Part shown: in pieces, positions 6,691 to 53,198 of the stretch
Layout of the letters: the number at the start of each line of letters is the position of its first letter
Position numbering within the stretch: position 1 is the first letter of the stretch
NCBI GenBank assembly: GCA_964561935.1
Contig: CAZLQX010000003.1
Location: 66,848 to 130,847, forward strand
Length of the DNA stretch: 64,000 nucleotides
Direction: 5' to 3'
DNA from: an uncultured Holophagales bacterium
GTDB taxonomy: Bacteria > Acidobacteriota > Thermoanaerobaculia > UBA5066
Notes under the pieces: generated by a model
Database searches by the model: none
What the model was told of the DNA's origin: nothing
Seen by the model: only the letters and a program-made list of their open reading frames with translations
Made by a program: the position numbers and the translations under genes

Positions 6691-6738
6691 ACGGGATCGG
6701 CGCCGCGGGGGGATATCGTCGGCGTCGAGGTGCCGCCG

Positions 6739-7422
6739 ATGACCTCCCCTTGCCGCGCCGCGCGCGCTCTCTCCTTCGTTCCCTGCGTCGCTCTCGCCCT
6801 CGTCCTCGCGCACGGCGCCTCGGCGGGGTCCGCGGCCGCCGCTCCGCCCGCGACGCAGGCCGCGGCCGCCGTTTCGTCTGAGGCCACGTCACAGGCCGTT
6901 TCGCCGGGCGCCTCCCCTTCGCAGACCGCCGCGACGATCGCCGACCTCGCGTTCCTCGAAGGGGGATGGGTCGCGGACGACGGGGCGCGCCGCGTCGAGG
7001 AGCGGTGGCTCTGCGCCGGCCCCGACGGGATGCTCGGCGTGGGGCGGACGACGGACCTCGCGAAGGGGAAGACCGTCTTCTTCGAGTACCTGAGGATCGA
7101 GGCGCGTCGCGACGGCCTTTTCTACGTCGCTCAGCCGCGCGGCGGCCCGGCCACCGAGTTCCGCCTCGTCCGTATCGAGGAGGGGAGAGCCGTCTTCGAG
7201 AACCCCGCGCACGACTTCCCGAAGCGCGTCGTCTACTCGAGGCGAACTGACGGCGGGCTCACGGCCCGCGTCGAGGGGGACGCCGGGAGCGCCGGGCAGG
7301 CCGAGGAGTTCCGATATCGGCCCGCCGGGTCGTGCCCTCGCGAGACGACGGCTGCCGCGGGCGCGCGGGAGCGAGTCGGTCGTCTCTCGGGCGACGAGGA
7401 ACCGCCCGCCCCGCCGCGATAG
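6739..7422 (+). CDS. secreted DUF6265-like (lipocalin-like) protein
   Basis: ATG at 6739 with GAGG 8 nt upstream; the ORF track begins at GTG 6730. Has a signal peptide and the motifs FLEGGW…FENPAHDFPKRVVY. Confidence 0.6.
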   Translation: MTSPCRAARALSFVPCVALALVLAHGASAGSAAAAPPATQAAAAVSSEATSQAVSPGASPSQTAATIADLAFLEGGWVADDGARRVEERWLCAGPDGMLGVGRTTDLAKGKTVFFEYLRIEARRDGLFYVAQPRGGPATEFRLVRIEEGRAVFENPAHDFPKRVVYSRRTDGGLTARVEGDAGSAGQAEEFRYRPAGSCPRETTAAAGARERVGRLSGDEEPPAPPR

Positions 7423-31556: not shown

Positions 31557-31668
31557 GACGCCATCGTACGCCGGACCGGGAACGCGAGGCGTCTGCGCCG
31601 GTCGTGCTGCGGCGCAGTAAGATCGCGTCGGCGTCGTCCCCGGCCGGGGCGCGCCCGAGGAGGACGGC

Positions 31669-31860
31669 ATGAAAGCGGCGCTCCGTTCGACGGACCGGGA
31701 CTCGAAGCGCCCCGCCGTGCCCCCCGTCGGCGCCTGCTCGCGCTGCCCGGCCTGCGGGAGCGAGGAGTGCCGGGTCCTCGAGGAGCTCGGCACGTACTGC
31801 CAGACGATGGCGGCCGCGGGCGCGGTGCCGGGAAGCCGCGGAGCCCGGCGGAGGGTGTGA
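31669..31860 (+). CDS. small Cys-rich zinc-ribbon-like protein (63 aa)
   Basis: GGAGG lies 5 nt upstream of the ATG. Contains the CSRCPACG knuckle plus 2 further Cys. It lies upstream of the diguanylate cyclase on the same strand. Its ATG shares a CATG with the alternative cNMP-gene start. Confidence 0.3.
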   Translation: MKAALRSTDRDSKRPAVPPVGACSRCPACGSEECRVLEELGTYCQTMAAAGAVPGSRGARRRV

Positions 31861-31903
31861 GGCCCCGCCGGAGCCGGCCGGCCCGCGCCTATCATCGGAA
31901 GCG

Positions 31904-33112
31904 TTGAGCCTCACGCTTCTCCTCTCCCGGGCCGCTTCGCCGGACTCTGTGCAGGTCTTCGCGCCGGTCCTCACCTCCGAGCTCGCGGTCCCCGCGGCCT
32001 CCGCGGTGGCGATCGCCACGCTCGGCCTCGTCGCGCTCCTCTTCTGGGCGCGCGACCGCGTACGCCGGGACCTCCTCCTCTACGCGCTCCTCGCGGCGGG
32101 GCTCGCGGCGTACCTCCTCGCGTCGCTCCCGGTCTGGACGTCCCCGCCCGCGCGGGTCGCGGCGACTCTCGCCGTCCTCCTGCCGCCGCTCGCCTGGCTC
32201 CTCCTCCTCCTCTTCCTCGAGGTCCCCCGCTCGGCCGCGCGGCTCGCCCTCCTCGCGGTTCCTCTCGCGGGTCTCGTCGCGACGTTCGCGGGGCCCCGCA
32301 ACGCGCCGGCCGCCGCGTGGGCCGGCGCAGCCTCGCTCGTCGTCTTCGGCGGCGCGGCGCTCGTCGACCTCGCGAGGCTCCGTCGTCCGGACGGCGCGCT
32401 CCTCTTCGCCGCGACGGCGGCGCTCCTGCTCGCGGCGCTCTTCGACGCGGCGGCCGGGAGCGGCGTCCTCCTCCCGGGAGCCCGGGTGACGCCGCTCCTC
32501 GGGCCCGCCTTCCTCCTCTTCACCGCACTCCTCCTCGTGGCCGTCGCCGACCAGGGGCGGCGCCTCTTCGAGCGGGCGACGACGGACGCCCTCACGGGGC
32601 TGCCGAACCGCGCGACGTTCCTCGAGCGGGCGCGCCGCGAGCTCGCGCGCGCCGAGAGAAGCGGCGGCTCGCTCGCCCTCGCGATGCTCGACATCGACCA
32701 CTTCAAGCGGTTCAACGACCGCTACGGCCACCAGGCCGGGGACCGCGTCCTCGCCCAGGCGGGGCGCGCCGTCGCCGGCGCCGTCCGCGGGATCGACCTC
32801 GCGGGGCGCTACGGCGGGGAGGAGCTCGTCGTCCTCCTCGTCGACGTCGAGGGGGAGGCGGCGGTCGCCGCGGTGGACCGGGTGCGAGGGGCGATCTCCG
32901 AGGTGCGGATCCCCCACGTCCCGGACGCCGTGACGGCCTCGGCCGGGGTCGCGCTCCACAGCGGCGCGTTCGACAGGGCGGACGTCGCGGCGCTCATCCG
33001 CCGGGCCGACGCCGCGCTCTACCGGAGCAAGGAGGCGGGCCGGAACCGGACGACCGTCGAGCCGCGCGGCCCGGAGCGCCCCGCTTCCCCGGCCGAGGTC
33101 CTCTACCGCTGA
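31904..33112 (+). CDS. membrane-anchored diguanylate cyclase (GGDEF, GGEEL variant) with I-site
   Basis: A 6-7 TM N-terminal domain is followed by GGDEF (RYGGEEL), with an RGID I-site 5 residues upstream. Confidence 0.85.
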   Translation: MSLTLLLSRAASPDSVQVFAPVLTSELAVPAASAVAIATLGLVALLFWARDRVRRDLLLYALLAAGLAAYLLASLPVWTSPPARVAATLAVLLPPLAWLLLLLFLEVPRSAARLALLAVPLAGLVATFAGPRNAPAAAWAGAASLVVFGGAALVDLARLRRPDGALLFAATAALLLAALFDAAAGSGVLLPGARVTPLLGPAFLLFTALLLVAVADQGRRLFERATTDALTGLPNRATFLERARRELARAERSGGSLALAMLDIDHFKRFNDRYGHQAGDRVLAQAGRAVAGAVRGIDLAGRYGGEELVVLLVDVEGEAAVAAVDRVRGAISEVRIPHVPDAVTASAGVALHSGAFDRADVAALIRRADAALYRSKEAGRNRTTVEPRGPERPASPAEVLYR

Positions 33113-34249: not shown

Positions 34250-37200
34250 CTACGGGTAGTAGCCGCTGATCGTCCGCGCCTCGAGGTCTCCCGGCGAGAC
34301 CTTCACCTCGACCTTCCGCCACTTGTCCCCCTTGCGTGCCGGGGGGACGTAGGTGAGGAGGTACTGGCTCCGGAGCTCCTCGTCGATCTCCTTGTAGACG
34401 CCCGCGAGGGCCTTCGCCGAGTCGACGTAGTAGACGGTCCCGCCGGTCTCGCGCGCCATCCGGTTCATCTTCGTCCGGACGTCGAACTGCGTCCCGGGGA
34501 CCTTCAGGGCGATGAAGTAGATCGCGACGCCCGACTTGCGGGCGTAGTCGAGCGCGGCCTCGTAGGCGAACTTCGAGGCGCGGTCCGCGCCGTCCGTCAG
34601 GAGGACGTACGCCTTCCGCCCCTTCGTCCCCTGGTACTGGTAGAGGCCGTAGACGACGGCGTCCCAGAGCGACGTCGAGCCCTGGGCCCTGAGGCCCGCG
34701 AGCGCCTGCGCGAGGCGGTCCCGGTCCGTCGTGAAGCGGGCGGCGAGCTGCGGCTCGTTGTCGAACGTGACGAGGAAGCAGCGGTCGCGGGGCGTCATGA
34801 CGCTCCGCAGGAAGTCGTTCGCGGCCTTCTGCGCCTCGGGGAGCGTCTCCTCCATCGAGCCCGAGGTGTCGACGCCGAGGCCGAGCGCGAGGGGGAGGTT
34901 CGTGACGACCTCGAAGCCGTCGACGGCCTGCTCGACGCCGTCCTCGAAGACCCGGAAGCTCGAGCGCGCGAGCCCCGTGACGGGACGCCCCTTCTGGAAG
35001 ACCGAGGTGTAGAGCTCGACGGCCTGGACGTCGACCTCGGAGAGGTACTTCGGGGCGTTGAAGTAGCGGACGTCCTCGCTGACGCTCCCGTCCTCGAGCG
35101 TCGCGACGACGCGGAGGAAGCCGATCTCCTTCTGCCTCGGGACGTCGACGACCTGCTGGAAGGGGGGCTGGTAGAGCGTCGCGGCGCGCGTCTCGTTGAC
35201 GAAGAGCTCGAGCTTCTGGAGCTTCTTCGTCTCGGGGACGGCGAGGTCCGCGACGACGCGGACGGGCCCGGCGAGAGGCGCGCCCTTCTCCGGGGCGGTG
35301 ATCCGCACCCGGAAGGCCTCGCGCCCCTCGTTCAGGACGAGCTCGTCCTCGGAGAGGAGCCGCCCGTCCTTCGAGTAGCCGAGGACCTTCACGGTCCGCT
35401 TCCGCGGGAGCTCGCCGAGGTCGAGGTCGGCCTCGAAGGGGGGGCGGCGGTCCGTGACGACCTTTCGCCCGTCGAGGAAGAACTCCGCCGAGGCGACGTC
35501 GTCCGAGGTCGAGCGCGTCTCGAACCGGACGACGCCTGTCGCGAACTCCCTCGCGATCGGGAGGAGCGAGAGCGAGCCCCGCTCGTTCGGCTCGGCGACG
35601 AGGCGCGCGAGGGCCGCCTTCGCCGCCTCGCGGGCCGCCTTCTCCTCCGGCGTGAGGCTCTGGTCGGGCGACTCCGGGACGACGACCTTCTCGTCGAGGA
35701 GGGCGGCGGCATTGCGGTTCGCGTCCGCGATCTTCACCTTGAGCCGGTACTCGCCCGGGTAGAGGTAGCGCTCGATGTTGAGCGGGAGGAACGCCCCCGT
35801 CACCGTCGAGGACGGGAAGTCGAACCGGTACCGGAAGTTGTCGACGAGCTTCCCCCCCTTGACGACCTCGCCGACGACGTCGAGGTCGTAGAAGCTCTCC
35901 TCGCCGAGCACCTTCGTCCCGAGGGTCTCGCGCTCGAGGAGGACGGAGAGCTCGAGCCGGATCTTGCTCGCGACCATCTCGGGGAAGCGGAGGACCCGCT
36001 GCACGGGGAGCCGCGCGGCGGACGGGTCGAGGTCCGTCGTCATGAGAAGGATCTTGTCGACCCCCTCGACGTCGGGCTTCGGCCCCGTCTTCAGCTCGTC
36101 GATGAGCTTCTGCGCCCCCATCGTCCCGAAGATCCCGGCGGACGTCGCCATCGCGGCCTGGATCTCCCGCCACTCCTGGCAGCGGGTCGGGTCGACGGTC
36201 CGCGCCGTCCCGGCGCCGCCGAGGCCGGCGATGCCGCCGGCGATGAGCGCCTGGGGACCGTCGAGCGGGGTCCAGAGCCGGTAGTCGCCGATGCCGAACG
36301 GCTGGTAGAAGAGGAGGCTCACCTTGCTCATCCGGAGCGACTCGAGGCGCTCGTAGTACCAGATCTCGACGGGGTTGTAGATGTCCTGGCAGTCGATCTT
36401 CCGGAAGCCGTCCGGAGGGCCGTTGATCAGGAAGACCCGGCCCTGGTCGCTGTTGATCGACCGGTAGCGCTCCTTGACGGTCTGGAGCCGCAGCTCGTAG
36501 ACGTCGCGGAATGCGACGCGCTGGCCGTCCTCGTCGACGGAACGGCGTTTCCAGAAGTCCTCGACGAAGCGGTCCCGCTGGTAGTCGGAAGCGAGGCGGA
36601 GGAAGGTCGCCTCCTCGAGCTCCGTCAGGATCGGCTCCACGTCGGCGAGGAACTGCCGGTAGCGGTCCGGGAGCGCGTCGAGCGCCTGCTTTCGCTCCCG
36701 GGCCGACATCCGCTTCGCCCCCAGGACGAGCGGGGCGGGCGCGCCGGCCGGGGCGGAGGCCGTCGGGCCGGAGAGCGGGACCGCGAGGGCCGCCCTCTCG
36801 CGCAGGCCTCCCGTCGTGTCCCCCTGCCGCTTGCCGATCGAGCGGTAGGCGGCCTGGACGAGGCCGGTGTCCGCGCAGCCGAACGCTCCCTCGGCGAGGG
36901 CGTCGAGCGGCTTGTCGGCCTGTGACTTCGGCGCGAGGAGGGCCGATTCCCCCTCCAGGACCGTCCAGTAGCGGCCGATCCCGGTGCCGGGCTCGGGGAA
37001 GAAGATCATCCGCGCGTTCGATCCGAGGAGCCGGTGGGAGAGGTAGGTCCAGACCTCGATCCGGGCGAAGAGGTTCGGGCAGGAGACGATCCTGCGGGCA
37101 TCGGGACCGCCGCCGGAGGCGACCCAGACCGCGGCGCGGTCGTCGTCGAGGCGTCCGAAGAGCGTCATCGCCTCGGCGCGCAGCGCGCGCGCCGCGTCGG

Positions 37201-37378
37201 GTGCCTCGTCCGTGACGTCGACCCCCTTCGAGGGGTCCGCGGGCGGGGCAGGCCGCTCCGGGGCCGGAACGGGAGCCGGGGTCGGGGGCGGGCCGCCGGC
37301 GGGCGGCGTCTGCGCCGCCGAGCCGGCCGCGACGAGCGCTGCCAGCGCGAGCCATCGAGCGTTCGACCGGACCGTCAC
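34250..37378 (-). CDS. large secreted GWxQ-domain / von Willebrand factor A (VWA) protein
   Basis: GTG start with AAGGAGG 5 nt upstream, then a signal peptide. Central region has FWKRRxVDEDGQ…IWYY. The C-terminal VWA has MIDAS motifs DTSGSM…LLTDGAD. Confidence 0.75.
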   Translation of the reverse strand: MTVRSNARWLALAALVAAGSAAQTPPAGGPPPTPAPVPAPERPAPPADPSKGVDVTDEAPDAARALRAEAMTLFGRLDDDRAAVWVASGGGPDARRIVSCPNLFARIEVWTYLSHRLLGSNARMIFFPEPGTGIGRYWTVLEGESALLAPKSQADKPLDALAEGAFGCADTGLVQAAYRSIGKRQGDTTGGLRERAALAVPLSGPTASAPAGAPAPLVLGAKRMSARERKQALDALPDRYRQFLADVEPILTELEEATFLRLASDYQRDRFVEDFWKRRSVDEDGQRVAFRDVYELRLQTVKERYRSINSDQGRVFLINGPPDGFRKIDCQDIYNPVEIWYYERLESLRMSKVSLLFYQPFGIGDYRLWTPLDGPQALIAGGIAGLGGAGTARTVDPTRCQEWREIQAAMATSAGIFGTMGAQKLIDELKTGPKPDVEGVDKILLMTTDLDPSAARLPVQRVLRFPEMVASKIRLELSVLLERETLGTKVLGEESFYDLDVVGEVVKGGKLVDNFRYRFDFPSSTVTGAFLPLNIERYLYPGEYRLKVKIADANRNAAALLDEKVVVPESPDQSLTPEEKAAREAAKAALARLVAEPNERGSLSLLPIAREFATGVVRFETRSTSDDVASAEFFLDGRKVVTDRRPPFEADLDLGELPRKRTVKVLGYSKDGRLLSEDELVLNEGREAFRVRITAPEKGAPLAGPVRVVADLAVPETKKLQKLELFVNETRAATLYQPPFQQVVDVPRQKEIGFLRVVATLEDGSVSEDVRYFNAPKYLSEVDVQAVELYTSVFQKGRPVTGLARSSFRVFEDGVEQAVDGFEVVTNLPLALGLGVDTSGSMEETLPEAQKAANDFLRSVMTPRDRCFLVTFDNEPQLAARFTTDRDRLAQALAGLRAQGSTSLWDAVVYGLYQYQGTKGRKAYVLLTDGADRASKFAYEAALDYARKSGVAIYFIALKVPGTQFDVRTKMNRMARETGGTVYYVDSAKALAGVYKEIDEELRSQYLLTYVPPARKGDKWRKVEVKVSPGDLEARTISGYYP

Positions 37379-37509
37379 CCGAGCCTCCTTGGCCTCCGTC
37401 CGCCCGGGGCTGCAAGACGGGGGCCGCATCCGAGTGTACGGCGGGCGCGGGCGCGGGTTCGTGAGCGGAGCCACGGACCGCGCGGGACGCGCTTCCTAGA
37501 ATCGGGACG

Positions 37510-38679
37510 ATGCCGACGATCCGGGTCTACGCCGACCACCACGCGACGACACCGCTCCGGCCCGAAGCGCTCGAGGCGATGCGGCCCTGGCTGGAGGGAC
37601 TCGCGGCGAACCCCTCGTCGATCCACGGCCCGGGGCGGGAGGCGCGGAAGGCGGTCGAAGGGGCGCGGCGGGAGGTCGCGTCGATCCTCGGCGTCCACGC
37701 GGAGGAGGTCGTCTTCACGTCCGGAGGGACGGAGGCCGACGCCCTCGCCGTCGTCGGCGGGGCGCGCGCGGCGCGCGCCGCGGAGCCGGACCGGACACGG
37801 GTCGCCTTCTCGGCGGCGGAGCACGCCGCGGTTCGGGAGGCGGCGCTCTCCCTCGGCGGGCTCGGCTTCGAGCCGGTCGAGCTGCCCGTCGACGGATGCG
37901 GGCTCCCGCGGGCGGAGGCGCTCGCCAAAGCGATCGGCCCGCGGACCGCGCTCGTGTCGCTGATCCTCGCGAACAACGAGACGGGTGTCCTGAACGGCGC
38001 GCTCCCGGCGACCGCGCGGGCGGCCCGGAACGCGGGCGTCCTCGTCCACGCCGACGCCGTCCAGGCGGTCGGGAAGGTCCCCGTCTCGCCGGCCGGTCTC
38101 GGTGTCGACCTCCTGTCGTTCACCGCGCACAAGCTCGGCGGGCCGAGGGGAGCGGGGGTCCTCTGGGCCCGGGACGGCGTGCGGCTCGCGCCGCTCTTCG
38201 TCGGGGGCGGGCAGGAGCGGGGGCGCCGAGGCGGGACGGAGAACGTCGCGGCGATCGTCGGCCTCGCCGCCGCGCTCCGCGCGGCGACGACGCGCCTCGC
38301 CGAGGAGGCGGCGCGCGTCGCGGCGCTCCGCGACACCTTCGAGAGGGCGCTCGTCGCGAGGATTCCGGGAACGCGCGTGAACGGAGCGGGCGCGCCCGCT
38401 CCGGGGCGCCTTCCGACGGTGACGTCCGTCACGTTTCCGGGCGTCGACGGAGAGACGCTCCTCGCGGCGCTCGACCTCGAGGGGATCGCGGCGTCGTCCG
38501 GTTCGGCGTGCGCCTCGGGGACGCCGGCCCCGAGCCGGGTCCTCCTCGCCTGCGGCCTGCCCGTCGCGGACGTCCGCGCGACGCTCCGCTTCTCGTTCGG
38601 CTGGACGACGACTGCGGAGGACGCGGAGACGCTTGTCGAGGCGCTTCCGCCCCTCGTCGCCCGCTGTCGCGCGGCTTGA
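37510..38679 (+). CDS. cysteine desulfurase (class V aminotransferase, IscS/NifS-like)
   Basis: Contains the PLP-lysine motif SFTAHKLGGPRG and the catalytic-Cys loop SSGSACASG. Confidence 0.85.
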   Translation: MPTIRVYADHHATTPLRPEALEAMRPWLEGLAANPSSIHGPGREARKAVEGARREVASILGVHAEEVVFTSGGTEADALAVVGGARAARAAEPDRTRVAFSAAEHAAVREAALSLGGLGFEPVELPVDGCGLPRAEALAKAIGPRTALVSLILANNETGVLNGALPATARAARNAGVLVHADAVQAVGKVPVSPAGLGVDLLSFTAHKLGGPRGAGVLWARDGVRLAPLFVGGGQERGRRGGTENVAAIVGLAAALRAATTRLAEEAARVAALRDTFERALVARIPGTRVNGAGAPAPGRLPTVTSVTFPGVDGETLLAALDLEGIAASSGSACASGTPAPSRVLLACGLPVADVRATLRFSFGWTTTAEDAETLVEALPPLVARCRAA

Positions 38680-41845: not shown

Positions 41846-43248
41846 CGCGTCACCGCCGCGTGGAGCGCCTTCACGGAGGCCGCTCGGTCCCTCTCGTCGA
41901 CGACGAAGGAGATGTTGCACTCGGAGGAGCCCTGGGCGATCGCTTCCACGTTCACTCCCGCGCGCGCGACGGCGGCGAAGACCTTCGCCGCGATCCCGAC
42001 GGTGCCGCGCATCCCGTCCCCGACGGCCGCGACGACGGCGACGGGCGAACGCGCCGCCACGCCGTCGATCGAGCCGACGAGCTTCTCGTACCGGAACTCG
42101 TCCGCGAGCGCGGCCGCGACCCGCGCGCGGTCCGCCTCGGGGAGGACGAGGGCGATGTTCTGCTCGGAGGAGGCCTGGGAGATCATGACGACGGAGGCGC
42201 CGAGCCGCGCCGTCGTCTGGAAGACGCGCGCCGCGATCCCCGGGACGCCGCTCATCCCCTTCCCGTCGAGCGAGAGGAGGCAGAGGCCGGAGACGGAGGT
42301 CACGGCCCGGATGCCGGGACGCGGGTCCCCCTTCTCGGAGATCGTCGTCCCGGGGCCGTCCGGGGCGAACGAGTTCCGGATGACGAGAGGGATCCGGGCG
42401 GCGATCGCGGGGAGGACGGCGGGGAAGTGGAGGACCTTCGCGCCGAAGTAGGTCATCTCCGCCGCCTCGCGGTACGAAAGGCGCGTCAGGAGCCGCGCGC
42501 CCGGGACGATCCTCGGGTCGGCCGTCAGGACGCCGTCGACGTCGGTCCAGATGACGACCTCGCGCGCGGAGAGGGCCGCCCCGAGGAGCGCCGCCGTCGT
42601 GTCGGAGCCGGAGCGGCCGAGCGTCGTCGTCTCGCCCTCCGCGGAGCGCGCGACGAACCCGGTCACGACCGGGACGACCCCGCGCGCGAGGAGGCGCCGG
42701 AGGACGCGTCGGACGCGGGGGTCGGAGCGCTTCCGGTCGCACGTCGCCGCGCCGTGCCGCCCATCGGTGACGAGGAGCTCCCGCGCGTCGACGGGGCGGG
42801 CCGGGACGCCGAGAGCCGAAAGGGCCGCCGCGAGGAGCGGCGTGGAGAGCCGTTCGCCGAAGGAGGCGACGAGGTCGGTCACGCGGGGCGTCCGCTCGCG
42901 CAGGAGCGAGATGCCGGCGAGCGCGGTCTCGAGCTCGGCGAGCGGGGCGGGGTCGAAGCGGACGGCGGAGCCCGTGGCGGCGGCGACGCCCGCGGCCGCG
43001 GCGCGGTGCCGCTCGCCGAGGGCGGCGACGGCGCGGCGGGCCGGGGCGAGGCGTCCCCGCTCGGCGTCGTGCGCGGCGCCGAGGAGGACGTCGGTCACGC
43101 CTCCCATGGCCGAGGCGACGGCGACGAGGCGGCGCCGCCGCGCGGCCGCGGCGAGGAGGCCTGCGGCGCGGACGATCCTCTCCGCGTCGCCGAGCGACGT
43201 GCCGCCGAGCTTGTGGACGGCGACGGGGCGGTCACTCGCTCTCGGCAA
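41842..43248 (-). CDS. lysC: aspartate kinase with C-terminal ACT domains
   Basis: TTG start (…KLGGTSLGD). Has an AA_kinase fold and two ACT domains. It overlaps the upstream transposase-like gene by 17 nt. Confidence 0.85.
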   Translation of the reverse strand: MPRASDRPVAVHKLGGTSLGDAERIVRAAGLLAAAARRRRLVAVASAMGGVTDVLLGAAHDAERGRLAPARRAVAALGERHRAAAAGVAAATGSAVRFDPAPLAELETALAGISLLRERTPRVTDLVASFGERLSTPLLAAALSALGVPARPVDARELLVTDGRHGAATCDRKRSDPRVRRVLRRLLARGVVPVVTGFVARSAEGETTTLGRSGSDTTAALLGAALSAREVVIWTDVDGVLTADPRIVPGARLLTRLSYREAAEMTYFGAKVLHFPAVLPAIAARIPLVIRNSFAPDGPGTTISEKGDPRPGIRAVTSVSGLCLLSLDGKGMSGVPGIAARVFQTTARLGASVVMISQASSEQNIALVLPEADRARVAAALADEFRYEKLVGSIDGVAARSPVAVVAAVGDGMRGTVGIAAKVFAAVARAGVNVEAIAQGSSECNISFVVDERDRAASVKALHAAVTR

Positions 43249-44173
43249 GGAGCCTCTTCTCCAGCTCGTCGAGCGTCGGACGGAGCGCCTTCCAGCGCCC
43301 CTCCCTGACGTCGCCGAGGACGTTGCTGACGCGCGCCGGCCTCACGCCGAACGCCTCGCCGACCTCGCGGCCGGAGAGGCCGGTGAGCCGCCGCGAGAGC
43401 CAGATCGCGGCGACCTTCGCCGCGTGGGCGTCGGACCGCCCGAGGCCGGTCTCGGGGACGCCGAAGCGCGCCGAGACGGCCGACTTCACGCGCGAGAGCT
43501 CGACGGCGCCGGGCCGGGGACGGCCCGCGGCAGGCGGCGTGAGGAGGAGCGCGCGGGCCTCGCGGGCGAACTCGGGGCTCCCGACGACGAGACCCGGGAG
43601 GGCGCGCTCGCGAAGCGGCCGGATGTTGCGGGTCCCCGAGACGAGCCGCCGGTAGCGCTCGCGCGCCCGCGGCCGGGCCGGGGAGAGGCGCCGGAGCGTC
43701 GCGTCGACCGTGAGCCAGGCGGGCCGCTCGGAGAGCCCGGCGATGGCGGGGGCGCTCGAGTAGCGCCACTCGAGGGCGGCGCGCGCGAGGCGCGCCCTCA
43801 CGGGGGCGAGGGCGACGACGCGCGCCGCCTCGAGGAAGGCCGTCGCGGGGTCGACGAGGAGCGAGCGGAAGCGCCCGTCGAAGAGCGCCCCGGAGCGGCC
43901 GTGCCGGCGGTTGAAGGCCTGGGCGTAGCGCCCCCCGAGGGCGCGCATGCCGGCCGAGAGGTTCGGCGCAGGCGTCTCGAGGAGGAGCTCGACGGAGGAG
44001 CCGAGGAGGGCGTAGGCGTGGACGAGCCAGCCCCGCTCCTCGGCGGTCCGTCCGAGGTCGAGGAGGAAGCGGTCCCGGTCCGCGTCATCCCGGAAGAGCG
44101 GGCTCCGCTCCGGCGCGCGCCATGCGACGTGGTGCACCGCGCCTGCGAGCTCGAGACGGGGAGGGCGGGACAT
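43232..44173 (-). CDS. Y1 (IS200/RayT, COG1943-like) transposase-derived protein fused to DnaA-C-type HTH; HUH and Tyr motifs substituted
   Basis: N-terminus reads HHVAWRAPERSPLFRDDADRDRFLLDL…AYALLGSSVELLL…GGRYAQAFNRRHGRSGALFDGRFRS. The C-terminus reads …AAKVAAIWLSRRLTGLSGREVGEAFGVRPARVSNV (Bac_DnaA_C-like). Confidence 0.7.
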   Translation of the reverse strand: MSRPPRLELAGAVHHVAWRAPERSPLFRDDADRDRFLLDLGRTAEERGWLVHAYALLGSSVELLLETPAPNLSAGMRALGGRYAQAFNRRHGRSGALFDGRFRSLLVDPATAFLEAARVVALAPVRARLARAALEWRYSSAPAIAGLSERPAWLTVDATLRRLSPARPRARERYRRLVSGTRNIRPLRERALPGLVVGSPEFAREARALLLTPPAAGRPRPGAVELSRVKSAVSARFGVPETGLGRSDAHAAKVAAIWLSRRLTGLSGREVGEAFGVRPARVSNVLGDVREGRWKALRPTLDELEKRLLAESE

Positions 44174-44251
44174 GCGCGGCGATTCTAGTGGGAAGGGGCC
44201 GCCGGTCCCCCCGCGCGCCCGGCGGTACGATGCCCGCACCACGAGGGAACG

Positions 44252-46825
44252 ATGGACGACGGGACGCGCGCGCGAGGGGTGAGGTGCGAGGCGCCGCCCG
44301 GCTGGGCGGAGGCGACCGCGCGCCGCGGCGCCACGGACCCTCTCGCCGCGCGGCTCGCCGAGGGAGGGCGGCTCGCCCCGCTCCGCTCCCTCCGCCTCGA
44401 GCCGCGACGCGGAGCGGGAGCGGGGACGGCGCGCCTCCACCTCCCCGAAGGGTCGGGGGACGTCGTGGTCGTCCTTCGCCAGCCGTCGGGCGCGCTCTCG
44501 ATCCACCGTCCCGAGGCGGGTGGGGCGTCGCGGCGCGGGGGCGCGACCGTCGACCTCCCCCTCCTCGCGCCGCGGGCCCGGCGTGCCGGGGAGGCGCCCC
44601 GCGGAGCCGTCGTCCTCGTCCTGGCCGCCGCCGCGCGCGTCGAGGCGCGCGCCGCGCGAACGCTCGCCCGCGTCTTCGAGGAGGCCGCGTTCCGGAGGGC
44701 CGGGCTCGTCGAGGGGCTCGTCCACGCCACGCCCGAGGGCTTCCGCGAGGGCCGGCTCGCCGCCGCACCGAGGGACCTCCTCGCGGCGCCCCCCGCGCGG
44801 AACCTCCTTCTCCTCCACGGCACCTTCTCGTCCACGGCCGCCGCGTTCGCGGGCCTCGCCCGGAGCGGCGTCCTCCCGGCGCTCGCGCCCCGCTACGGCG
44901 GCCGCGTCGTCGGATTCGACCACTTCACCGTGAGCCGGACGCCCGGGGAGACCGCGCGGAGGCTCGCTTCCGCGCTGCCGGCCGGCGGGATCTTCCTTTT
45001 CGACGTCGTCGCCCACTCGCGCGGGGGCCTCGTTCTCCGGACGCTCGTCGAGAGCCCCGGCCGGGTCGGGCCGTGTGCCGGCCGGTTCACCGCGGGGAGC
45101 GTCGTTCTCGCCGGGGTCCCGAATCTCGGCACGCCCCTCGCCTCACCCGACCGCTGGGAGCTCGCGCTCGCGGGCTGGCTGAACCTCTTCGACCTCCTCC
45201 CTCCCGCTCCCGCGCCGCTCCTCGGCGCCTTCGTCGTGGAGGCGCTCCTCTGGCTCGCGCGTCGCGTCACGACGCTCCTCCCCGGCCTCGCCGCGATGGA
45301 CCCGCACGGCGGGACGATCGCGGAGCTCGGCCGGAGCGCCCGGCCGGAGGCCTACTCGGCGATCGCGGCGCGCCACGAGGCGCGCGGAGCGCTCGCGCTC
45401 CGGCTCCTCGACGCCGGCGTCGGCTGCTTCTTCGGAGAGCCGAACGACCTCGTCGTCCCGACGGACGGCTGCGCGTCGCTCTCGCGGGACGGCACCGCAC
45501 GCGTCGCCGACGATCGGGTCGCGCTCCTCGGAACGAGCGGGGCGCCGGCGAGCCACTTCGACCTCCTCTCCTGCGAGGAGGGGGCGGCGTTCGTCGTCGC
45601 CGCGCTCGGCGGCGGGGGCGGGCCGGGCGGTCGCCGGGGAGCGCGGAGGTCGGCTCCCGGCGAGGACCGGGCGGTGCGGCAGGCGCGGCGAAGGCCGGCC
45701 TCCGCGGCTCGCGGCGGCGCGTCGCCCGCGCGTCTCGGCGAGCCGCGGCGCGAGGCGCTGGAGCTGACCCTCCTCCCCGGAGACCGGCGCGACGCGACCG
45801 CCCTCCTGTTCGCCAGATTCGGCGCGGCGCGCGCCGTTGCGGAGGTTCCGCGGAAGGGAGAGGCGTGGAGGGAGATCATCCGGGGACACGAGCGCCTCCG
45901 CGCCCACTACGACGGCGACGGGCGGCCGCTCCCGCCGGCGGCCGCGCTCGAGCGCTGGGGGGCGCTCCTCTTCGAGACCCTCTTCCCCGGCGAGGTGCGG
46001 AGGCTCTGGGACGCCGCGCGCGGGGCCGCGGGGGGCGTCCCGACGGACGTCGTCTTCACGTCGCTCCTCGACTGGGTCGCCGACAAGCCGTGGGAGCTCG
46101 CGTTCGACCCTCACCGCCGCGCGTGGCTCGCCGCGACCGAGGCGTGCTTCGTGAGGAACGTCGTCACGGCGATCCCGTGCGAGGCGCGGCCGCGCCGCCG
46201 CGGGAAGCTCGCGATCGTCGTCGCGGCGGCGCAGCCGGCGGGCCTGACGCCCCTCTCCTGGGAGGAGGAGGCCGAGGCGGTCCGGGCGGGGCTCGCGCCG
46301 CTCTCCGCCGCCGGCCTCGCCCGGATCCGCGTCGAGCGGGCCGTGACCGTCGAGGCGCTCCACCGTCTCGTCGCGGACGGGCCGTGCGACGTCCTCCACT
46401 TCGTCGGCCACGGCGCGTGGGACGCGGAGCGGAGGGTCGGGGCGCTCCTCTTGGAGTCCGCCTCCGGAGGCGCGGCGCCCGTCGAGGCGCCCGTCCTCCG
46501 ATCGCTTCTCGCGGGACGGGGTCTTTCGCTCGTCGTCCTGAACGCCTGCCAGAGCGCCCGCGGGAGCCGGTCCGACCTCGCCCGGGGGGTCGCGCCCGCG
46601 CTCGTCGCCGCGGGGGTACCGGCCGTCGTCGCGAACCAGTTCAGCGTCCTCGACGCCGCTGCGCTCGTCTTCGCGCGGGAGCTCTACCGGTCGCTCGCCC
46701 TCGGGCGGGCGCTCGGCGACGCGGCGCGCGAGGCGCGGCTCGCGGTGAGGTGCGACGCCGCGTGCGGGCCTCTCGACTGGGCCGTGCCGGTCGTCTACGC
46801 GCGAGACCCCGGCGCCGTCCTCTGA
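44252..46825 (+). CDS. fusion protein: N-terminal alpha/beta-hydrolase (lipase/PGAP1/DUF676-like, AHSRGG nucleophile elbow) plus C-terminal CHAT (caspase-like His-Cys) domain
   Basis: ATG with GAGGG upstream. N-terminal region has LLLLHGTFSST…DVVAHSRGGLV. C-terminal region has KLAIVVAAAQP…LHFVGHGAWD…LVVLNACQSA. Confidence 0.75.
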   Translation: MDDGTRARGVRCEAPPGWAEATARRGATDPLAARLAEGGRLAPLRSLRLEPRRGAGAGTARLHLPEGSGDVVVVLRQPSGALSIHRPEAGGASRRGGATVDLPLLAPRARRAGEAPRGAVVLVLAAAARVEARAARTLARVFEEAAFRRAGLVEGLVHATPEGFREGRLAAAPRDLLAAPPARNLLLLHGTFSSTAAAFAGLARSGVLPALAPRYGGRVVGFDHFTVSRTPGETARRLASALPAGGIFLFDVVAHSRGGLVLRTLVESPGRVGPCAGRFTAGSVVLAGVPNLGTPLASPDRWELALAGWLNLFDLLPPAPAPLLGAFVVEALLWLARRVTTLLPGLAAMDPHGGTIAELGRSARPEAYSAIAARHEARGALALRLLDAGVGCFFGEPNDLVVPTDGCASLSRDGTARVADDRVALLGTSGAPASHFDLLSCEEGAAFVVAALGGGGGPGGRRGARRSAPGEDRAVRQARRRPASAARGGASPARLGEPRREALELTLLPGDRRDATALLFARFGAARAVAEVPRKGEAWREIIRGHERLRAHYDGDGRPLPPAAALERWGALLFETLFPGEVRRLWDAARGAAGGVPTDVVFTSLLDWVADKPWELAFDPHRRAWLAATEACFVRNVVTAIPCEARPRRRGKLAIVVAAAQPAGLTPLSWEEEAEAVRAGLAPLSAAGLARIRVERAVTVEALHRLVADGPCDVLHFVGHGAWDAERRVGALLLESASGGAAPVEAPVLRSLLAGRGLSLVVLNACQSARGSRSDLARGVAPALVAAGVPAVVANQFSVLDAAALVFARELYRSLALGRALGDAAREARLAVRCDAACGPLDWAVPVVYARDPGAVL

Positions 46826-46834
46826 CTGCGAGCC

Positions 46835-49528: not shown

Positions 49529-50854
49529 CTATGCCGAGAGCCGCGGGTTCAGGGCGATCGCCTTGTTGAGCGCCTCGACCGCCGCCTCGAACTTCTTGAG
49601 CCCCTCGTAGGTCGTCTTCATCGCGTACCACGCCTCGGCGTAGTCGCTCTTGAGGGCGACGGCCTTCTTCAGGTGCCCGAGCGCCTCGTCGAAGGCGAGC
49701 TCCCGGTTCGCGGCGAGGCCGAGCCCGTAGTGCGCTTCCGCGCAGGAGGCGTCGCCGTCGAGCGCCGCCCGGAATGCCTCGGCGGCCTCGGGGAGCTTCC
49801 CTTCCTCCAGGAGCGCCATCCCGTGCGCGGCGTGGACGGGGGCGCTCTTCGGGTCGATCTCGACGGCCCTCTCGAACGTCTTCTGGGCGTCGCGGAACTT
49901 CTTCATCCGCCCGTAGGCGAGGATCGCGCACGCGGGGAGGAGCGGGTCCTTCGGGAACTTGCGCGAGGCCGCCTGGGTGGTCTCGACCGTTCCCTGGAAG
50001 TCGCCCGACTCGAGGAGCGCCCGGGCCGTCTTCAGGTGGAGCTCCGGGTCGTCCTTGTGCTGCTCGAGCGCCGTCCGGAGCGGCTTCACCGCCGAGGCGA
50101 AGTCCTTCGCTTCGTAGAGGGCAAGGCCGAGCTTCCGGTGGACGGGAGAGGTGTCGGGCGCCGTCTTCGCCGAGATCTTGTAGTTCTCGAGGGCGGTCTT
50201 CAGCTTCCCGCCGAGCTTCATGAGGTCGCCGAGGTTCTCGAAGAGGAGAGGGTCCGTCGAGGTGCGCGCCGCCTTCCTCAGGCGGAGCCGGGCCCGCTCC
50301 GCGTCGCCGCGCGAGTAGTCGACGAGGGCGAGCATGTGAAGGAGAGGCGCGTCCTCCACACCTCCCTGCTCGGCCCACGACTCGACGTCCTTCAGGATCT
50401 TCCGCGCCTCCTCGGTGAGGGTCTTCGGGTGGTCCCCGGCGAGCTCCTCGAGCCGCTCGGGGAAGCCGTCGGCGGCGAGGCGCTGGCGGAGCGTCTCGAA
50501 GGCCTCCCGGGCCTTCCGGCCGAAGAAGAAGCGCTGGGTCGTCTGCTCCCGTTTCGCCCTGTCGGCGAGGGAGTCCCTCTCGGCCGTGGCCGCCGCGAGC
50601 TGCTCCTCGGCAGCGGCGAGGCGGGCCTCGAGGTCCGCGGACCTCTCGGCGAGGGCGGTCCGTTCCGCAGAGACGGTCTCCAGCTCGCGCGCGATCCGCG
50701 CCCTTTCGGTCTCGACCTCGGCGAGACCTTCCCGGAGCTTCGAGGCTTCCTCGGTCGAGGAGGTCTTCAGGGCGGAGAGGGAGCGGAAGAGGACGACGGC
50801 GGTGACGACGGCCACGGCCGCGAGGGCGAGGGCGACGAGCAGTCCTGTCGACAA
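49529..50854 (-). CDS. membrane-anchored coiled-coil / TPR-repeat protein
   Basis: TTG start with GGAGG 6 nt upstream. Has an N-terminal TM segment, a coiled coil, then 6 or more TPR units. Confidence 0.65.
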   Translation of the reverse strand: MSTGLLVALALAAVAVVTAVVLFRSLSALKTSSTEEASKLREGLAEVETERARIARELETVSAERTALAERSADLEARLAAAEEQLAAATAERDSLADRAKREQTTQRFFFGRKAREAFETLRQRLAADGFPERLEELAGDHPKTLTEEARKILKDVESWAEQGGVEDAPLLHMLALVDYSRGDAERARLRLRKAARTSTDPLLFENLGDLMKLGGKLKTALENYKISAKTAPDTSPVHRKLGLALYEAKDFASAVKPLRTALEQHKDDPELHLKTARALLESGDFQGTVETTQAASRKFPKDPLLPACAILAYGRMKKFRDAQKTFERAVEIDPKSAPVHAAHGMALLEEGKLPEAAEAFRAALDGDASCAEAHYGLGLAANRELAFDEALGHLKKAVALKSDYAEAWYAMKTTYEGLKKFEAAVEALNKAIALNPRLSA

Positions 50855-51053
50855 GGGGCTCCTCCGCGCGAAAGGAACGGCGCGACTCGGGATGTTACCT
50901 CCGGGAGCGCCCTCTGCGGAACGGAGAAGCCCTGTCCGGGCGGAGGGTCGTGCGGCGCGGTCGAGCGCTCCGCCGCGCCCGGCGGCGAACCGGCGCCAGG
51001 GGGCAGGTGGCGGCCGGAGGCCGCCGTTAGAATGCGGCGTGGCTCGCACCAGG

Positions 51054-53198
51054 ATGTCGCCCCGCTGCCTCGCCGTCGCCCTCGCCGCCCCGCTCGCGCT
51101 CCTCGCCCCGGCCCTGGCCGCCCAGGAGGTCAAGGGACGGGTCGTCGTCCTCGGCTTCGACGGGGCCGACCACCGTCTCGTCTCCCAGTACATCGCGGAG
51201 GGGAAGCTCCCGAACCTCGCGCGGCTCGCCCGGGAGGGAAGCTTCTCGCCCCTCCGGCCGACGATCCCCGCCCAGACGCCGGTCTCCTGGTCGACCTTCT
51301 CGACCGGGCTCTCCCCGGGCCGGACGCAGATCTTCGACTTCCTGAAGAGGGACCCGAAGACCTACCGGCCCGAGTTCGCCGTCGCGACGGAGGGGAAGAG
51401 GCGCTTCCTCCTCGGGAGCGGGAACCGGGCCGGCGCCGCGGCCCTCGGGGCGCTCCTCGCGTTCCTCCTCGTCTTCCTCCTCGGCCGCTTCACGGTGAAG
51501 CGGACGAAGCCCGCGGCCCTCGTCGCACTCGTCCTCGCGGCGCCCGCCGGCTTCTTCTCCTACCGCTTCGGCGGCCTCCTCCCCGAGTCGCTCCAGACCG
51601 TCCACAACAACCGGAAGGGGACGCCGTTCTGGGAGGTCGCCGGTAAGAGCGGGATCCGGTCGGTGGTCCTCCATGTCCCGGTCACCTTCCCGGCCGTCGA
51701 CTTCGACGAGGGGCGGCTCCTCTCCGGGCTCGGCGTCCCCGACGTGCGGGGGCGGATCGGCACGCCGAGCTACTACACGTCCGACCCGTTCTTCTCGCCC
51801 CGGAACAAGAACGAGTTCTCCGTGGAGCTCGTCCGCCTCGAGTCGAACGTCGGGACGATCCGGACGGAGGTCTTCGGCCCCTACAACAAGCTCTTCGGCG
51901 AGCCCCCGGTCATCAGGACGCCGATGACGCTGACGGTCCTCCCGGACGGCGGGCGCCTGAGGATCGAGCCGAAGGGGAGCGAGCCGGTGACGCTGAAGCC
52001 GGGCGAGTGGTCCCCCTGGGTCACCTTCACGTTCGAGTTCAACCCGGTCGTCAAGCTCTCCGGCATCGGGCGCTTCCACCTCGCGAAGCTCGCGCCGGAG
52101 ATCGAGCTCTACCTCTCGCCGATCCACTTCAACCCGGCGAAGCTCCCGCCGGGCGTCAAGATCACGGCCCCCGGCGGCCTCGCGAAGGACCTCGCGAAGC
52201 GCTTCGGCCTCTACAAGACGATGGGCTGGTCGATCGACACCTGGTCGATGAGCGAGGAGACGATCGACGAGCCGACGTTCCTCGACGACGTCACCTTCAC
52301 GGTGCAGCAGTACCGGAAGATGATGGACGGGCTCCTCGCCGAGAAGGACGTGAAGCTCTACGTCCAGGTCTACGAGTTCACGGACCGGGTCGGCCACGTC
52401 ATGTGGCGCTTCCTCGACCCGACGCACCCGGCGTACGACGCGGAGAAGGCGGCGATGTTCGGTCCCTCCGTGGAGCGGAACTACGTCCAGATGGACGAGA
52501 TCGTCGGCGACGCGCTGAAGGAGCTCGGGCCGGACGACCTCCTCCTCGTCTGCTCCGACCACGGCTTCTCGAGCTGGAGGCGGTCGATCAACTACAACAC
52601 CTGGCTCGTCGAGCACGGCTACCTCGCGCTCAAGGGGGGCGACGAGAAGCAGGCGGACCTCGAGCAGCTCTTCGGCCAGGGGGAGTTCTGGCCGAACGTC
52701 GACTGGTCGCGGACCAAGGCCTACTCGATGGGCCTCGGCGAGATCTACGTGAACCTGAGGGGCCGCGAGTCGCAGGGGATCGTCGAGCCGGGGGCCGAGT
52801 ACGACGCTCTCCGGCAGGAGATCCGGGTGGGGCTGATGGCGATCGTCGACGAGGCGACCGGGCGCCGCCCCGTCGAGCGCGTCTACACCCGCGAGGAGGC
52901 CTACGGCTCGTTCGACCCGAACGTCATCCCGGACATCTTCGTGACGAACAGCGAGGGCTACCGGGTCTCGTGGCAGGCGAGCCTCGGCGTCGTCACGCCG
53001 GAGCTCTACGAGGAGAACGTCCAGGTCTGGTCGGGCGACCACTGCTCGGTCGACCCCGACGTCGTCCCCGGGATCCTCCTCTCGAGCCGGCCGCTCCGGA
53101 AGGAGCCCCGACCGAACATGGCCGACGTCCCCGCGACGATCTACAAGGCGCTCGGCCTGACGCCGCCCGAGCCGCTCGACGGGGAACCGCTCTTCTGA
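51054..53198 (+). CDS. secreted alkaline-phosphatase-superfamily protein (type I phosphodiesterase/nucleotide pyrophosphatase-like) with internal hydrophobic insertion
   Basis: Has a signal peptide. AP-superfamily metal and nucleophile motifs are present: VVLGFDGADH, PTIPAQTPVSWSTFSTG, LLVCSDHGF. Confidence 0.75.
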   Translation: MSPRCLAVALAAPLALLAPALAAQEVKGRVVVLGFDGADHRLVSQYIAEGKLPNLARLAREGSFSPLRPTIPAQTPVSWSTFSTGLSPGRTQIFDFLKRDPKTYRPEFAVATEGKRRFLLGSGNRAGAAALGALLAFLLVFLLGRFTVKRTKPAALVALVLAAPAGFFSYRFGGLLPESLQTVHNNRKGTPFWEVAGKSGIRSVVLHVPVTFPAVDFDEGRLLSGLGVPDVRGRIGTPSYYTSDPFFSPRNKNEFSVELVRLESNVGTIRTEVFGPYNKLFGEPPVIRTPMTLTVLPDGGRLRIEPKGSEPVTLKPGEWSPWVTFTFEFNPVVKLSGIGRFHLAKLAPEIELYLSPIHFNPAKLPPGVKITAPGGLAKDLAKRFGLYKTMGWSIDTWSMSEETIDEPTFLDDVTFTVQQYRKMMDGLLAEKDVKLYVQVYEFTDRVGHVMWRFLDPTHPAYDAEKAAMFGPSVERNYVQMDEIVGDALKELGPDDLLLVCSDHGFSSWRRSINYNTWLVEHGYLALKGGDEKQADLEQLFGQGEFWPNVDWSRTKAYSMGLGEIYVNLRGRESQGIVEPGAEYDALRQEIRVGLMAIVDEATGRRPVERVYTREEAYGSFDPNVIPDIFVTNSEGYRVSWQASLGVVTPELYEENVQVWSGDHCSVDPDVVPGILLSSRPLRKEPRPNMADVPATIYKALGLTPPEPLDGEPLF

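Follow-up and report, generated by a model that had tools for sequence, protein, structure and literature searches.

A predicted alpha/beta-hydrolase-CHAT protease fusion and a catalytically dead Y1-transposase-like gene as divergent neighbors in an uncultured Holophagales bacterium

According to Kaur, Burroughs, Iyer, and Aravind (2020; PMC7159879), who were the first to draw attention to this pairing, the caspase-superfamily peptidases of conflict systems are always accompanied by an alpha/beta-hydrolase gene. In the closest described example, from Lysobacter capsici AZ78, LcCaspase cleaves LcHydrolase, an alpha/beta-hydrolase zymogen, at two conserved Arg-Gly sites, and the cleavage fragments of LcHydrolase kill Escherichia coli when they are co-expressed (Evans et al., 2025, bioRxiv; PMC12642450). 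We herein describe a gene that is predicted to combine a hydrolase and a caspase-fold protease in one polypeptide. It is located in a stretch of 64,000 nucleotides (nt) of DNA from an uncultured Holophagales bacterium, the whole of which is called the window below, and encodes a protein of 857 amino acids (aa) in which an alpha/beta-hydrolase domain of the Pfam family DUF7379 precedes a CHAT protease domain (the DUF7379-CHAT gene; positions 44252-46825, plus strand). A gene for a 313-aa protein with homology to Y1 transposases (the Y1-like gene; 43232-44173, minus strand) is transcribed divergently from it, and the two genes are separated by a gap of 78 bp (44174-44251).

The original prediction, which was made from the letters of the window, regarded this divergent pair as one two-gene locus with a possible role in conflict or defense and did not recognize it as a described system. 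The two open reading frames (ORFs), their orientation, and their spacing were borne out by ORF calls, and the identity of the longer gene was further supported by Pfam, homologs, an AlphaFold2 model, and Foldseek searches against the PDB. The pairing itself did not hold, as no linkage between Y1-like and CHAT genes was found outside 15 syntenic loci of close relatives. Our preferred reading, which we hold as a whole with moderate confidence, has three parts: the plus-strand gene is a self-contained, sensor-less, single-chain protease-effector module composed of a hydrolase and CHAT; the Y1-like gene joined the 5' end of the lysC-thrB-thrC operon in this Acidobacteriota clade; and the two genes are functionally unrelated neighbors and not a conserved system.

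Regarding the long protein, both domains scored well above the cut-offs of their hidden Markov models (HMMs). DUF7379 (PF24096) was assigned to aa 185-359 (E 1.4e-36; 126.7 bits against a cut-off of 33) and CHAT (PF12770) to aa 595-847 (E 6.3e-31; 108.3 bits against a cut-off of 24), by which the predicted fusion of a lipase-like serine hydrolase with CHAT was confirmed in the form of a DUF7379 alpha/beta-hydrolase with CHAT. The AlphaFold2 model of the 857-aa protein had a mean predicted local distance difference test score (pLDDT) of 82 and a predicted template modeling score (pTM) of 0.48. Its secondary structure delimits an N-terminal beta-rich domain (aa 11-126; 44282-44629, this and all following positions of the gene being on the plus strand), which is followed by the alpha/beta-hydrolase domain (aa 128-452; 44633-45607), a disordered linker with a pLDDT below 50 (aa 457-498; 45620-45745), and a middle region with the CHAT protease (aa 503-857; 45758-46822). 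Both enzymatic parts are supported by Pfam, Foldseek, the model, and invariant alignment columns.

The residues to which catalytic roles were assigned are invariant in 51 homologs. In the hydrolase, these are the oxyanion residues H189-G190 (44816-44821), the putative nucleophile S256 in the elbow AHSRGG (within 45014-45028), D399 in NDLVVP (within 45443-45460), and H435 (within 45548-45562), while CHAT contributes His720 in VGHGA (within 46403-46417) and Cys766 in NACQS (within 46541-46555). Judging from the order of the motifs and from the model, S256, D399, and H435 would form a Ser-Asp-His triad in the canonical order, and the predicted catalytic residues of the hydrolase and CHAT are both intact. 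In structural comparisons by Foldseek, the C-terminal region matched Csx29, SAVED-CHAT, DdvA, and separase (E ~3e-10 to 1e-9), and the hydrolase matched thioesterases and RutD (E 1e-4 to 1e-3). A sequence search of the PDB returned a chance match only, to a methyltransferase (E 0.06). The earlier view that the fusion resembles the effector modules of conflict systems is thus supported by the domain make-up and the structural matches. No sensor domain was recognized in the 857-aa protein by Pfam or PADLOC. The comparison with defense-system profiles in PADLOC yielded a match of this protein to SAVED_CHAT (E 1.6e-12), in which profile positions 101-270 of 498 were aligned with aa 660-853.

The DUF7379-CHAT family is catalogued in Pfam and widespread; a full-text search of the literature on DUF7379 found no experimental description, in agreement with the earlier statement that this was not a recognized, described system. 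When aa 1-460 were searched against 1.84 billion cluster representatives, 1,873 clusters (at 50% identity) were obtained at E ≤ 1e-3, of which 1,126 were retained at E ≤ 1e-10. A scan of one genome per species confirmed relatives at at least 551 loci, which are scattered patchily over many phyla; Nitrospira, Acidobacteriota, and Bradyrhizobium are among the groups that possess the family.

The combinations in which DUF7379 occurs are informative about its partner. P0286 combines a WD40 propeller with DUF7379 and CHAT, DUF7379-CHAT forms of ~1,450 aa end in a TPR-S sensor (P0191, P0196, P0201, and P0216), and in P0322 an N-terminal Peptidase_C14 (caspase) domain is joined to a C-terminal DUF7379. 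DUF7379 proteins of ~500 aa without a protease also occur. In all three of the protease-less genes that were looked up, the hydrolase keeps Arg-Gly motifs ahead of its core, and a CHAT gene or CHAT-like fragment was present on the same strand directly upstream. In the first, the gene for a 692-aa PF12770 protein ends 13 nt before the DUF7379 gene (L177:9-3588); in the second, a partial ORF with the motifs HFAVHG and LNACQ overlaps the DUF7379 gene by 8 nt and matches the CHAT of the family by blastp (L175:2-1988; E 5e-13); and in the third, a partial ORF 4 nt upstream, for which blastp gave no match, looks by eye like the C-termini of the other two (L176:1-1831). Since DUF7379 and a caspase-fold protease recur fused to each other, with C14 in the place of CHAT, and split into adjacent co-oriented genes, comparative genomics shows the predicted hydrolase and protease to be coupled, and the conserved functional dyad appears to lie inside the 857-aa ORF and not between the two divergent genes.

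Other arrangements were also observed among the relatives. In a metagenome-assembled genome (MAG) of Pirellulaceae, a Peptidase_C14 gene (L093:5131-5943, plus strand) ends 58 nt upstream of a gene for a 1211-aa DUF7379-CHAT protein on the same strand, an arrangement that might represent a protease cascade. Nitrospira-type homologs of ~1150 aa possess a conserved C-terminal extension of ~280 aa that has no match in Pfam (for example, P0058, aa ~870-1151; L091:6001-9456). This extension is carried by most DUF7379-CHAT proteins of ~1150 aa but is missing from the window protein; it might act as a sensing or regulatory domain.

The distribution of Arg-Gly motifs is a further feature of the family. 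The window protein has R25-G26, R53-G54, R95-G96, and R117-G118 in its N-terminal part and R462-G463 (within RRG, aa 461-463) and R487-G488 in the linker. Compared with the numbers expected from composition, RRG is enriched ~10-fold in the poorly conserved N-terminal region (112 observed, 11.7 expected) and ~4-fold in the linker (26 observed, 6.4 expected), with no enrichment in the hydrolase core (6 observed, 10.2 expected), figures that overstate independence because the sequences counted are related. The linker contains Arg-Gly in 40 of the 51 homologs and RRG in 25 of them. Upstream of the HG oxyanion motif, Arg-Gly peaks at -150/-140, -105, and -80/-75; it is present 60-100 aa upstream of HG in 198 of 223 family members, 148 of which have it at -79 to -75; Arg also occupies P2 in 137, and a hydrophobic helix comes next. 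All of the Arg-Gly sites are in loops or disordered segments predicted by the AlphaFold2 model, where pLDDT is low.

Proteases of clan CD commonly prefer Arg at P1, as is the case for separase, metacaspases, clostripain, and gingipain R. Considering this preference together with the positions of the motifs and the precedent of LcCaspase, we propose that the window protein may process itself at Arg-Gly. The hydrolase would be kept latent within the single chain, and CHAT would cut after Arg at (R)R-G in the N-terminal loops and in the linker, either in cis or between protomers, the linker Arg-Gly being a candidate site for parting the hydrolase from the protease. Cleavage would then free or activate the hydrolase, which would attack an ester substrate, possibly a lipid. 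Cleavage, zymogen behavior, substrate, and cellular outcome are suggested here by analogy with the Lysobacter pair and by the sequences compared, and the outcome may be either anti-phage cell suicide or another stress response.

If this mechanism is true, one chain of 857 aa would hold the caspase-like protease, the zymogen on which it acts, and the sites of cleavage, and would offer a very compact bacterial model of protease-gated effector activation. The concept of a hydrolase coupled to a caspase is already in the literature, and no new principle is shown here; the family occurs widely, including in groups of environmental importance, and the idea of self-processing is directly testable.

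Several points weigh against this proposal, in addition to the relatedness of the sequences in which RRG was counted. The RRG motifs could instead be structural or binding motifs, and the motif of the third site is slightly shifted in the window protein, which has RRAG and PRG instead of RRG. LcHydrolase is much smaller, with ~295 aa, and is apparently cut inside its hydrolase fold, so that the resemblance may not extend beyond the logic of the two systems. The PADLOC match is weak and confined to the CHAT portion, a recognizable sensor is lacking, and the gene resides in a stable housekeeping neighborhood with synteny in the clade down to 70% identity, which is unusual for defense genes.

Some of these points would equally suit an alternative in which DUF7379-CHAT is a housekeeping or regulatory enzyme, acting, for example, in the turnover of phospholipids or lipoproteins or in the processing of a cellular substrate, with RRG serving as a structural, membrane-binding, or partner-binding motif. 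Stable vertical inheritance among housekeeping genes is seen in Nitrospira as well as in the window clade, neither a sensor domain nor a defense-island context was recognized, and CHAT proteins with roles outside defense exist (separase, HetF, and the DdvA anti-sigma factor). A gene for glycerophosphodiester phosphodiesterase (GDPD) adjoins the DUF7379-CHAT gene, from which it diverges, in eight distinct relatives, including the outgroup locus L020 (examples are L004:7046-7939, minus strand, and L020:8962-9744). This neighbor could point to a lipid as the substrate of the hydrolase, and it would fit an enzyme of lipid catabolism. However, the linkage to GDPD is confined to one clade, and the patchy distribution over many phyla, the WD40 and TPR-S sensors of relatives, and the recurrent coupling of the hydrolase to caspase-fold proteases, both fused and split, are reminiscent of the effector modules of conflict systems. 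We regard the housekeeping alternative as unlikely, but as one that deserves to be taken seriously.

A further reading, which is speculative and which we consider rather improbable, retains self-processing and changes the role. DUF7379-CHAT would be an autonomous, sensor-less protein that cuts its own N-terminal Arg-Gly loops and linker and thereby unleashes a hydrolase resembling a phospholipase. Its gene would be stably inherited on the chromosomes of Acidobacteriota and Nitrospira and serve a purpose other than phage defense, such as stress-triggered membrane remodeling or programmed cell death, and the ancestral GDPD neighbor would process the deacylated lipid products. A caspase and its executioner would then be united in a single polypeptide, in contrast to the modules described to date, which comprise two genes and are coupled to sensors.

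The second component of our preferred reading, in which the protease-effector module is contained in the plus-strand gene, concerns its neighbor. On the evidence of alignments, the 313-aa protein is a catalytically dead, domesticated, Y1-transposase-like (RAYT-like) protein that has kept a putative helix-turn-helix (HTH) resembling domain IV of DnaA. Its own profile scores were below the cut-offs, at 34.7 bits for NCBIfam REP_Tyr_transpos (cut-off 80) and 15.6 bits for Bac_DnaA_C (PF08299; E 0.017; gathering cut-off 31.5), and Pfam Y1_Tnp gave no match at E up to 0.1. The profile matches anticipated by the original prediction were therefore obtained in part: CHAT was found, the hydrolase matched DUF7379, Bac_DnaA_C remained below its cut-off, and Y1_Tnp was not matched. 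Given these scores, the Y1 homology of the protein is traced through intermediate homologs only, which share 37-46% identity with it and carry PF01797 and PF08299 (PF08299 in P0152, P0159, P0160, and P0161).

The alignment with these relatives locates the losses. The degenerate HUH motif GSSVELL (aa 58-64; 43982-44002, minus strand) takes the place of GNHYHLL in intact relatives, and both metal-binding His residues are gone, SSVELL being found in the window clade where intact relatives have NHYHLL. The degenerate catalytic-Tyr motif ARVVALAPVRARL (aa 117-129; 43787-43825, minus strand) corresponds to (S/C)RY(V/I)xLNPVRAGL in intact relatives; the catalytic Tyr is replaced by Val119, and the window clade has RVVALAPVRARL where intact relatives have RY(V/I)xLNPVRAGL. 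The DnaA-C-like HTH (aa 229-278; 43340-43489, minus strand), which coincides with the sub-threshold Bac_DnaA_C match, is conserved in the homologs that bear PF08299. The description of an inactivated Y1 transposase with a DnaA-type HTH was accordingly right despite the weak scores of the protein itself, because it is carried by the PF01797 and PF08299 domains of the homologs and by the alignment. The protein is predicted to be a DNA-binding protein, and probably is one. Elsewhere in this family, a single 1.4-Mb contig carries two genes for 304-aa Y1_Tnp+DnaA_C proteins at a distance of 5.5 kb from each other (L088:501-1415 and 6001-6915), which indicates that some members are multi-copy and possibly still mobile or newly duplicated.

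The stop codon of the Y1-like gene overlaps the TTG start of lysC (43248) by 17 nt, and the corresponding overlap in the called genes of relatives is 8 nt. This overlap ties the Y1-like gene to the lysC-thrB-thrC operon and not to the CHAT gene, and, together with the conserved order, it suggests that the Y1-like gene is probably the first gene of the operon and co-transcribed with it.

The history of the site was followed across relatives by a lysC-anchored metagenome scan and marker searches. In a sister clade with a lysC of 72-78% identity, Aminotran_5-FHA-thrC-thrB-lysC is kept, both the Y1-like and CHAT genes are absent upstream of lysC, and this side is occupied by unrelated housekeeping genes, which are either carB and those for YidB, an SH3 protein, and an HHH protein or carB and that for a prolyl oligopeptidase. 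In the outgroup locus L020 (lysC 78%, CHAT 53% identical), lysC is followed at a distance of 135 nt by GDPD and then by the divergent CHAT gene, which leaves no room for a Y1-like gene. The order lysC, Y1-like, GDPD, and divergent CHAT was found in L004-L006, L010-L015, and L095, and the order lysC, Y1-like, divergent CHAT, and GNAT-like in L001-L003, L007-L009, and L135, as well as in the partial contig L097. Almost every close relative has the gene for this 314-aa GNAT-like acetyltransferase after its CHAT gene (L001:10633-11577, plus strand, and 13 others). The window has neither the GDPD nor the GNAT-like gene at the locus, and only 9 nt (46826-46834) separate the stop codon of the CHAT gene from the convergent stop codon of DUF480, at the point where relatives carry the GNAT-like gene. 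This series of states, with L020 included, argues that the CHAT gene was at the site before the Y1-like gene arrived, and that their adjacency in the window is due only to the absence of GDPD.

An alignment of seven relatives revealed short conserved elements in the intergenic region. On the minus strand, ATTCTA (44182-44187) reads TAGAAT and precedes the ATG of the Y1-like gene by 8 nt, a position that would fit a leaderless mRNA; TACGAT (44226-44231) and a Shine-Dalgarno-like GAGGGA (44243-44248) lie ahead of the ATG of the CHAT gene. These elements suggest two separate back-to-back promoters. A promoter scan with the sigma-70 consensus found none, a terminator scan found only two terminator-like hairpins at chance level, both inside the CHAT ORF, and no operator-like palindrome was seen in 44174-44251.

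Divergent regulator-target pairs are common in bacteria. This circumstance, the retention of the HTH while catalysis was lost, and the conserved elements described above might indicate that the Y1-like HTH protein has become, in this lineage alone, a local transcription factor that acts on the 78-bp region and thereby controls the CHAT gene as well as the thr operon. However, the Y1-like gene is not beside the CHAT promoter in the relatives that bear GDPD, and the elements resemble a ribosome-binding site and -10 hexamers and not an operator palindrome, which makes local regulation of this type very improbable in our view.

The proposal that the pair constitutes one conflict or defense system, with the dead-transposase HTH as a DNA sensor or regulator and the hydrolase-CHAT protein as an effector, was assessed in 86 loci with relatives of the long protein, six of them obtained by looking up exact proteins and 80 by the one-genome-per-species scan. 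It draws on the divergent arrangement, the spacing of 78 bp, the established action of CHAT proteins in defense systems, and the co-occurrence of both genes in all close relatives. Nevertheless, tblastn detected the Y1-like gene in only 15 of the 86 loci, namely, those with a CHAT protein of at least 70% identity, and a profile HMM built from diverse Y1_Tnp/DnaA_C homologs detected exactly the same 15. A region of ~15 kb is syntenic throughout these loci, in the order Aminotran_5, FHA, thrC, thrB, lysC, Y1-like, CHAT, DUF480, methyltransferase, His_Phos, and Phosphodiest; the co-occurrence consequently reflects shared ancestry and no more. The close homologs of both proteins that could be named are from Thermoanaerobaculia and Holophagales MAGs.

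Beyond this clade, neither tblastn nor the profile HMM found a Y1-like gene in the ~60 distant CHAT loci with an adequate upstream flank, which include Nitrospira, Bradyrhizobium, Verrucomicrobiota, Planctomycetota, Gemmatimonas, and other Acidobacteriota. Clustering of the neighboring ORFs revealed no partner family that spans clades, the largest clusters of neighbors in distant loci reaching 14 loci; the clustering used a subset of 7,214 six-frame ORFs filtered by G+C content at the third codon position (GC3), a filter that is imperfect at 74-79% G+C and kept some antisense ORFs. The Pfam-annotated neighborhoods of four distant CHAT homologs were all unlike one another, and three distant Y1_Tnp+DnaA_C homologs had unrelated neighbors, with neither CHAT nor lysC nearby. 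In seven of the loci L007-L086, a same-strand upstream ORF clustered with the DUF7379-CHAT genes themselves; these may be tandem paralogs or split gene calls.

The two genes are thus not co-inherited across the unrelated genomes covered, and the original prediction had itself named a lack of co-occurrence elsewhere as a finding that would speak against the pair. The presence of CHAT without a Y1-like gene at the same site in L020, the separation of the two genes by GDPD in at least eight relatives, and the overlap of the Y1-like gene with lysC point in the same direction, and a two-gene system is scarcely tenable. The apparent locus appears to be an accident of gene order, which calls for caution with divergent pairs that are read from a single genome.

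The DNA in this part of the chromosome has ~74-79% G+C, and no shift in composition was observed between the locus (0.78-0.79) and its flanks (0.75-0.78). The repeat search gave only GC-rich chance matches, and neither REP-like elements nor flanking direct or terminal inverted repeats were detected. Scanning the entire window for tRNA genes and Rfam families yielded nothing, and no integrase was present among the annotated neighbors. The earlier suggestion of an insertion into a conserved backbone consequently finds little support: the genes are missing from the sister clade, but the difference there amounts to a synteny breakpoint, and boundaries of an insertion cannot be drawn because repeats, tRNAs, and a composition shift are lacking and the whole upstream side differs. 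A clean insertion of a two-gene island was considered as a candidate and rejected on account of this difference over the entire side upstream of lysC. The least credible reading is that both genes are what is left of a mobile element, or of an island acquired horizontally, that was inserted beside lysC, for which the transposase-family descent of one gene, the patchiness of the CHAT family, and the absence of both genes upstream of lysC in the sister clade (lysC ~75% identical) might be cited, and against which stand the uniform G+C content, the absence of terminal repeats, tRNA, and integrase, the different times at which the two genes arrived, and the lack of drawable boundaries.

The surroundings of the locus are those of a housekeeping region, with no defense island. 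As predicted, thrC, thrB, and lysC form one flank and DUF480 (YceH) and a methyltransferase the other, and the genes within ~8 kb are these, His_Phos, and similar ones. The claim that cas, cyclase, and TPR partners are missing was correct for cas and cyclase genes, none of which was found within ~8 kb; a gene for a TPR protein does lie 2.7 kb away (49529-51193), as part of the conserved backbone. The window contains no second copy of the Y1-like or CHAT gene, and more widely it is ordinary chromosome, with genes for a vWA protein, GGDEF and cyclic-nucleotide (cNMP)-binding proteins, an antiporter, and peptidases. PADLOC matches among the neighbors were generic (a cysteine desulfurase to SspA/DndA and a methyltransferase to mad2), and the partner genes of these systems were absent.

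The first of these matches corresponds to a class-V aminotransferase (cysteine desulfurase) at 37510-38679 on the plus strand (SspA/DndA, E ~1e-107 to 1e-110). It is predicted to be most likely a housekeeping enzyme of the IscS/NifS type, because no Dnd or Ssp partner was present among the neighbors tested. A gene at 34253-37495 on the minus strand encodes a 1081-aa protein with vWA and Ig-like domains, the synteny of which is kept in relatives, and a divergent pair nearby, at 30345-33109, encodes a cNMP-binding/TPR protein and a GGDEF diguanylate cyclase.

When the two genes are compared with known systems, the Y1-like protein resembles, in fold family and overall architecture, RAYT and IS200-IS605 TnpA proteins (Y1 HUH enzymes) that are fused to a DnaA domain-IV HTH. 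It differs from them in having lost the HUH His residues and the catalytic Tyr, and its gene is single-copy in the window, is not accompanied by REP-like repeats, and is placed inside an amino-acid biosynthesis operon.

The CHAT part of the long protein has its best structural match (Foldseek E 3e-10) in Csx29, the TPR-CHAT protease of the type III-E CRISPR system (Craspase), with which it shares the CHAT fold and the His-Cys dyad. In contrast to Csx29, the window protein has no TPR arm and is fused to an alpha/beta-hydrolase instead, and neither gRAMP/Cas7-11 nor Csx30/Csx31 is present among the neighbors within ~8 kb. A CHAT protease is also shared with SAVED-CHAT proteins, which are linked to type III CRISPR or CBASS and were matched both by PADLOC and structurally (PDB 8tl0); the match is to the CHAT part only, and the window shows no SAVED domain and no cyclase or CRISPR neighbors. 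Separase and the other Arg-cleaving proteases of clan CD have the CHAT/caspase-hemoglobinase fold in common with the window protein, in unrelated contexts and with unrelated substrates. Their specificity for Arg at P1 renders cleavage at Arg-Gly plausible, and the window CHAT would presumably share it.

The nearest parallel is provided by LcHydrolase/LcCaspase, in which, as in DUF7379-CHAT, the alpha/beta-hydrolase has a caspase-fold cysteine protease as its obligate partner. Conserved Arg-Gly motifs lie on the hydrolase side of both, as candidate cleavage sites in DUF7379-CHAT, and relatives of DUF7379-CHAT add WD40/beta-transducin and TPR-S sensors. Unlike these modules, the window copy has no sensor (STAND, WD40, or the like) and no defense-island context. 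Its three or four candidate sites lie ahead of the core and in the linker, whereas LcHydrolase has two sites within its 295 aa. A further difference from the Lysobacter pair is that DUF7379-CHAT brings both partners together in one polypeptide, with the hydrolase first and a protease of the CHAT type.

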